From Octopus vulgaris (Eukaryota), in assembly GCA_951406725.2 (NCBI GenBank), contig OX597830.1:4464001-4528000 (forward strand): a DNA stretch of 64,000 nt, read 5' to 3'. A model generated the notes under the pieces. The model had not been told where the DNA came from, made no database searches, and saw only the letters and a list, made by a program, of their open reading frames with translations. Below are positions 35,005 through 35,170 of this stretch, piece after piece (positions within the stretch are counted from its first letter, which is position 1; every line of letters begins with the position of its first letter). Both the position numbers and the translations under genes were made by a program.

Positions 35005-35170
35005 TTAAAACAGATTAGGAGATCGAAAATCCACCTGACGAATGTCATTGAAGACATGAAACGATTGTAGTGGCGGTTTATTTCTTTATATTAAAAATTT
35101 TTATGTATTGATTAAGTCTTTCCTTGTTTGTTTTGCAAAATAGCGGTTTTGTCTCGAATTAATATTATAC
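35005..35170 (+). mobile_element. 165-bp HHR-bearing insert embedded in pure (TA)n
   Basis: More than 100 bp of (TA)n on both sides. Confidence 0.8.
35031..35073 (+). ncRNA. Type-I hammerhead ribozyme with fully canonical core
   Basis: CCAC-CUGACGA-AUGUC-AUUGAA-GACAU-GAAA-C-GAUU-GUA-GUGG: stem I CCAC/GUGG, stem II AUGUC/GACAU, short stem III, GUA cleavage triplet. Confidence 0.9.

Follow-up and report, generated by a model that had tools for sequence, protein, structure and literature searches.

A hammerhead motif in the Octopus vulgaris genome very probably belongs to a young Penelope-like retrotransposon

The 43-nt type I hammerhead at positions 35031-35073 (+) of the 64-kb stretch of Octopus vulgaris DNA analysed here (the window) is very probably the pLTR hammerhead of a young Penelope-like element (PLE) that likely falls in the Hydra clade; the copy in the window would be a 156-bp, intron-less, 5′-truncated insert in (TA)n, predicted to cut as a dimer only and likely to be inert. 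Hammerheads in PLE pLTRs, Hydra elements and one Octopus Hydra family have already been published, and the new part may be a contrast in splice state between short and ORF-linked copies. The locus is a single member of a set of hundreds of nearly identical retrotransposon fragments, stands among approximately 11,000 minimal-hammerhead matches in the octopus genome and says little about host regulation. The family can serve as a model, as it is young, has intact sister ORFs, includes stem III versions with A-U, G.U and G-C, a natural series on which dimers could be tested, and preserves in its genomic copies a record of start site, splicing and priming site. In a survey of freely accessible papers, Craig et al. 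2021 was the sole relevant report found on octopus hammerheads or Penelope elements, and no published report of spliced genomic Hydra copies was found.

The motif contains the core CUGANGA, GAAA and NUH together with helices I-III and an open helix I. Stem I pairs CCAC (35031-35034) with GTGG (35070-35073) over 4 bp, stem II pairs ATGTC (35042-35046) with GACAT (35053-35057) over 5 bp with a 6-nt loop, the core comprises CTGACGA (35035-35041) and GAAA (35058-35061), stem III is the self-complementary ACGATTGT (35061-35068), and the predicted cut follows the triplet GTA, whose last base is 35069 (all on the + strand). A scan of both window strands with a strict type I descriptor returned this motif alone, and none of 200 dinucleotide-preserving block-wise shuffles of the window contained a match. 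The first-pass annotation had reported a hammerhead with the core CUGACGA, GAAA and GUA and with perfect stems I and II, and the same bases and stems were found here. Its wording "fully canonical" suits the core bases and not the remainder: the pair 10.1-11.1, a conserved G-C in hammerheads (PMC4209133), is A-U in the window motif and unpaired in 8 of 14 family variants, stem I has 4 bp, an alignment of the 14 variants contains no conserved stem I extension for a loop 1-loop 2 contact, and Rfam reported no hammerhead model in the window, either at the gathering score or at E values up to 10. The absent G10.1-C11.1 pair, the absent extension and the silence of Rfam lower the term canonical but not the term hammerhead. 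Similarly, it is literally true that stem III lies one change from a palindrome, yet ACGAUUGU already self-pairs at 8/8 positions including two G.U wobbles, so that stem III needs no restoring; its self-pairing amounts to -5.8 kcal/mol, compared to -10.0 for ACGAUCGU. Across the 14 variants the core and stem I are invariant and loop II and N7 vary, stem III pairing is kept as A-U, G.U or G-C in 9, 3 and 2 variants, respectively, and 2 of the 14 have a central U.U in stem III; the covariation score was not above that of shuffles (56/500).

The motif had also been described as isolated in pure (TA)n, a description that has to be replaced, since the hammerhead begins 25 nt inside a non-repetitive insert of 156 bp (35006-35161) and has 298 exact copies in the genome. 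The insert lies between (TA)60 and (TA)72, and the two tracts (34885-35005 and 35162-35304; 60.5 and 72 copies in TRF) form the left and right halves of the insertion target. Its first part (35006-35021, +) is a 5′-truncated remnant of pLTR exon 1, the same 16 nt that precede the GT donor in intron-containing copies, where they continue with GTATGT and not with ATCG; the junction GGAG|ATCG (35021-35022, +) bears the mark of a removed GT-AG intron of 1.1-1.6 kb; and pLTR exon 2 (35022-35161, +), 99% identical among full-length copies and continuous with tail and ORF at the locus L067, extends to the family 3′ end with no tail in the window copy. Because exon 1 joins exon 2 at 35021|35022, the window copy is, judging from its sequence, a 5′-truncated cDNA of the start of the element's spliced mRNA. 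It begins at -64 relative to the cut site and is missing the initiator-like TCACTTC, the family start being about 11 nt upstream of its 5′ end. A C at 35144, where all 29 other loci compared have T, represents a private change outside the ribozyme.

Exact searches yielded 298 genome copies of the 43-mer and 367 of the 27-mer behind the cut site, with 0 for the reversed control in both cases. For the complete insert, a first look across the 2.8-Gb genome gave 1124 candidates; 40 of them were scored, and the full-length matches were 99% identical. Copies often occur as head-to-head inverted pairs, and the tail is optional. A sample of 83 distinct copies was taken from 69 loci around the first listed 27-mer matches on contigs C1-C4, in which inverted pairs are not independent and which does not contain the tandem locus L123; 77 of these copies end in (TA)n, either directly (48) or after an 85-bp tail (29), while 4 end in the tail followed by other sequence and 2 were unassigned. 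The tandem locus (L123:580-1000; G000:C6:72319136-72319443) has 3+3 tandem 69-bp units in inverted arrangement, which hold only the intron acceptor and hammerhead of the family and are possibly the start of a mini-retrozyme array. At another locus (L026, upstream of position 1415), the inserted copy adjoins what we take to be a U6 snRNA-like fragment.

With regard to splice state, exact counts genome-wide gave 222 spliced junctions and 60 unspliced acceptors, and the 83 sampled copies comprised 51 spliced, 8 unspliced and 24 that are too short to tell, i.e., the short copies are mostly spliced (51/59). All but one of the 51 spliced copies start at -57 to -75 from the cut site, with the A of TCACTTC as the limit; the exception, as well as copies at L031-L034, extends past this site. 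From these 5′ ends of genomic copies, we infer that transcription starts at TCACTTC, 75 nt before the cut, and an initiator-like TCACT has been described in a rotifer pLTR (PMC3846280). The whole ribozyme is present in 66 of the 83 copies and only three begin within 4 nt of the cut site, where no enrichment of 5′ ends was found (binomial p = 0.42; 24 short copies); therefore, the reverse-transcribed RNAs appear to have been mostly uncut, perhaps a mere sign that cut RNAs make poor templates. In the 21 loci that bear an ORF, intron sequence precedes every one of the 38 hammerheads found, 3 of these calls (in the distant L121) being based on a looser pattern. As the ORF-bearing loci were chosen by ORF similarity and mostly represent other subfamilies, the contrast in splice state between short and ORF-linked copies is suggestive only.

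Folding predictions point to a ribozyme that would depend on pairing. The predicted minimum free energy structure of the monomer (-7.8) is an inactive fold with the core trapped against loop 3, the active monomer fold (-5.1) has a predicted probability of 0.005, and the homodimer minimum (-20.8) is a double hammerhead; an inactive monomer together with a double-hammerhead dimer was also predicted for 12 of the 14 variants, but for only 33 of the 256 possible loop tetramers. In a 158-nt context, stems I and II have probabilities of 0.35-0.64 and stem III of 0.01. The window ribozyme is thereby predicted to need a partner for cutting, and this copy is likely inert. The earlier view of this motif as the best candidate for an active ribozyme is not supported, on three counts, namely the predicted probability of the active monomer fold, the 66 of 83 copies left uncut, and a second hammerhead with longer stems 530 bp away. 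In vitro, single PLE hammerheads were inactive and dimers weak (PMC4209133), and a single copy of the Poseidon hammerhead did not cleave without protein (PMC11167929). On the other hand, a hammerhead from axolotl, whose helix III has 2 bp and a tetraloop, showed 22% monomer cleavage in one hour (PMC7229834), and, because that hammerhead has a similar helix III, the window copy may by analogy have slight monomer activity.

These observations bear directly on the suggestion that this copy by itself works as a cis-cleaving monomer and cuts a host pre-mRNA transcribed through it on the + strand. The presence of all core bases, the appreciable probability of stems I and II in context and the axolotl precedent speak for it; nevertheless, with stem III and the active fold predicted to be so rare, with most cDNA copies containing an uncut ribozyme, with single PLE hammerheads uncleaved in vitro (PMC4209133; PMC11167929, without protein) and with no host exon recognised in the window by inspection, cleavage of a host pre-mRNA by the window copy is unlikely, and even with + transcription a lone copy would need a trans partner RNA or the element's protein. 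The + strand is indeed the sense strand, as had been proposed, the parent ORF and the GT-AG intron sharing that strand. The search for a host exon covered 207 ORFs of at least 70 aa, inspected by eye, and a composition ranking of 804 of the 1029 shorter frames, and none was convincing. A bacterial promoter scan of the window gave nothing, being a type of scan irrelevant to an octopus genome. A 90-aa frame on the minus strand (window 12958-13230) resembles the C terminus of a LINE reverse transcriptase.

The parent element can be followed at the locus L067. There, exon 1 is followed by a GT-AG intron of 1095 bp, then by hammerhead and tail, and finally by the start codon of the RT frame, with no (TA)n break; the hammerhead sits 9 nt behind the intron acceptor. 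GT-AG introns of 1095-1571 bp are present in 10 copies. Among the 40 matches scoring best with the L067 frame, 20 loci were fetched, 5 of which have open frames of 821-852 codons spanning RT and endonuclease. The encoded proteins P0003 and P0004 contain YRDD, DKT, a CxCX5C linker, CxxC-E-N-CxH as well as, at the C terminus, a GIY-YIG whose VVY..YIG has no internal cysteine pair, and their N-terminal RWK position reads RIKWKA (KWK). The domain calls are based on motifs, relatives and Atlas neighbours: relatives carry HTH_animal, and the Atlas neighbours HTH_animal, GIY-YIG and RVT_1. Pfam recognised neither RT nor GIY-YIG in full-length P0003 and P0004 and gave only a sub-threshold GIY-YIG match among fragments, on a fragment of another locus, and comparison to PDB returned only a weak RT match (E 0.72). 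The family as a whole has direct and inverted pLTRs, an optional tail and a 5′-leader intron, as is typical of Penelope-like elements, and a single RT plus GIY-YIG ORF is evident from motifs in sister copies and absent from the window copy. The intact ORFs adjoin hammerhead exons that are 87-94% identical to that of the window and belong to sister subfamilies; L067 has a hammerhead exon 98% identical to the window's and a broken ORF, 95% identical to P0003 over 232 aa, and no intact master of the exact window subfamily was among the fetched loci. Contigs of four sequencing runs, which can only be guessed to be RNA, span ORF and pLTR of family relatives without revealing ends, strand or splice joint, and so count neither for nor against the model. 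Taken by its sequence motifs, the element is likely a Penelope-like retrotransposon of the Hydra clade. The Neptune/Nematis clade was considered and rejected, since the linker is CxCX5C and not CX2-5CxxC and there is one cysteine only between VVY and YIG. Two of the sister ORFs (L109:3977-6439 and L112:3510-6032) contain an insert of Asn-rich, low-complexity sequence that separates RT thumb from linker; N-rich inserts occur in rotifer Penelope ORFs (PMC3846280).

The continuity of sister copies with an RT-EN ORF also argues against a non-LTR retrozyme, i.e., a short tandem HHR repeat spread as circular RNA. A preprint (10.64898/2026.07.22.740005) links retrozymes to PLE pLTRs, and one family locus does have 3+3 tandem hammerhead-only units of 69 bp; however, at the window locus there is a single copy, the family's copies stand alone or head-to-head, head-to-tail hammerhead arrays being rare exceptions among the 83 sampled, and their 3′ end is a fixed site or the tail and their start lies near the initiator, all of which makes a retrozyme very improbable. 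A minimal hammerhead descriptor applied to the whole genome had 11,214 matches from many families versus 634 in the reversed control, and loop 3 was self-complementary in 82 of the first 100 listed matches (hand count, related copies included) compared to 36/256 expected by chance. With this excess, the shuffles that produced no match, and a core and stem I invariant beside a variable loop II and N7, a chance match or a decayed, unselected motif is scarcely credible, even though Rfam had no match and the covariation score did not exceed shuffles.

The preferred assignment to the Hydra clade may be compared with published systems. That clade has been defined by DKT, a CxCX5C linker, the absence of CCHH, and CxxC and CxH around E and N, with (TA)n targets and hammerheads, and includes Hydra-1_Obim of Octopus bimaculoides with its own hammerhead (Craig et al. 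2021, PMC8557442). The window family shares the single ORF with RT followed by C-terminal GIY-YIG, DKT, CxCX5C, the absence of CCHH, CxxC and CxH around E and N, the (TA)n target, and a hammerhead with a 4-bp TGYC/GRCA-type stem II and an extra base on each side (PMC8557442). It differs in having KWK instead of RWK, an Asn-rich insert between RT and EN in sister ORFs, a stem III that is an even 8-nt self-complement where most Hydra rows listed in PMC8557442 are 4+1+4, and a unit of approximately 5.5 kb, not <3 kb, because of the long, intron-containing pLTR region. It is a different family from Hydra-1_Obim: the hammerhead row given there for the latter differs in all three stems, and three motifs from the window family's hammerheads were not found in a Hydra record of the PMC8557442 supplement.

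As described for metazoan PLE pLTR hammerheads (Cervera and de la Pena 2014, PMC4209133), the window family has type I motifs with a 4-bp helix I and a small palindromic helix III, found mostly as single copies from truncated elements and as inverted pairs, with an intron acceptor beside helix I as in D. virilis Penelope. Those hammerheads were dimer-dependent and weak in vitro, and the window motif is dimer-only by prediction; in contrast to them, its family has A-U or no pair at 10.1-11.1 instead of G-C, and an acceptor 9 nt before helix I, due to which the 43-nt motif is unchanged by splicing. For the Poseidon element PAc of Anolis, internal priming, a protein-assisted hammerhead and a cleavage that is dispensable for insertion have been reported (Frangieh et al. 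2024, PMC11167929). PAc resembles the window family in its optional tail, AT-rich targets and internal priming, and its main template, uncut RNA, fits the 3′ and 5′ end pattern seen here; it belongs to another clade, and according to the same source its hammerhead overlaps the start codon and priming takes place inside the ORF, whereas hammerhead and tail of the window family lie in the 5′ leader. D. virilis Penelope similarly has an internal promoter with an initiator and a 5′-leader intron and produces both spliced and unspliced RNAs (Schostak et al. 2008, PMC2377424), and both states are found in genomic copies of the window family. Its intron is 75 bp long, compared to 1.1-1.6 kb here, and the predominance of spliced over unspliced genomic copies (222 to 60) sets the window family apart from what PMC2377424 describes.

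A mechanism can be proposed in which the initiator-like TCACTTC, located 75 nt ahead of the cut, would serve as the transcription start, the pLTR intron would be spliced out of the element RNA, the element's GIY-YIG endonuclease would nick (TA)n, and the reverse transcriptase would prime at an internal position, either the end of the pLTR or the tail; copying would then be confined to the first 165-250 nt of the mRNA. When read-through RNA arises from full or tandem elements, two of its hammerheads could pair through the 8-nt self-complementary stem III and, possibly helped by the element's protein, excise unit-length RNA, while a lone hammerhead would misfold and mostly stay uncut. A bolder idea, which we regard as conceivable and rather doubtful, is that splice state sorts the RNA: promoter-initiated, spliced mRNA, with a single uncut hammerhead close to its 5′ end and with internal priming, would give rise only to short dead-end inserts, and unspliced read-through RNA, with two hammerheads cutting as a dimer, would be the only template long enough for ORF-bearing copies. 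PLE intron retention has been described as unexplained (PMC8557442), and an antisense template (PMC3846280) and selection for the intron (PMC2377424) have been proposed; sorting, if true, would explain this long-noted retention without an antisense template. It is countable in the window motif's family (51/59 short copies spliced, 38/38 ORF-linked hammerheads unspliced) and, should it hold genome-wide, would bear on why full PLE copies keep their introns and what the hammerhead is for.

The second hammerhead in the window (35603-35694, minus strand) lies within a repeat (35305-36026), 530 bp from the first. It has the core CCGATGA, a U4C variant, together with a 6-bp stem I, a 62-nt stem II hairpin, a palindromic stem III (ACGTACGT) and a cut after GTC at 35609, and its predicted homodimer is a double hammerhead; U4C lowers hammerhead activity in vitro (PMC3088659). 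No ORF was found near this type in 12 loci. In the genome it had 286 matches; most have the CCGATGA core, a subfamily has CTGATGA, and many lie in arrays of 589-591 bp. The 591-bp unit in which it sits, whose ends are tandem and inverted, has the appearance of a large non-LTR retrozyme or of an array derived from a PLE.
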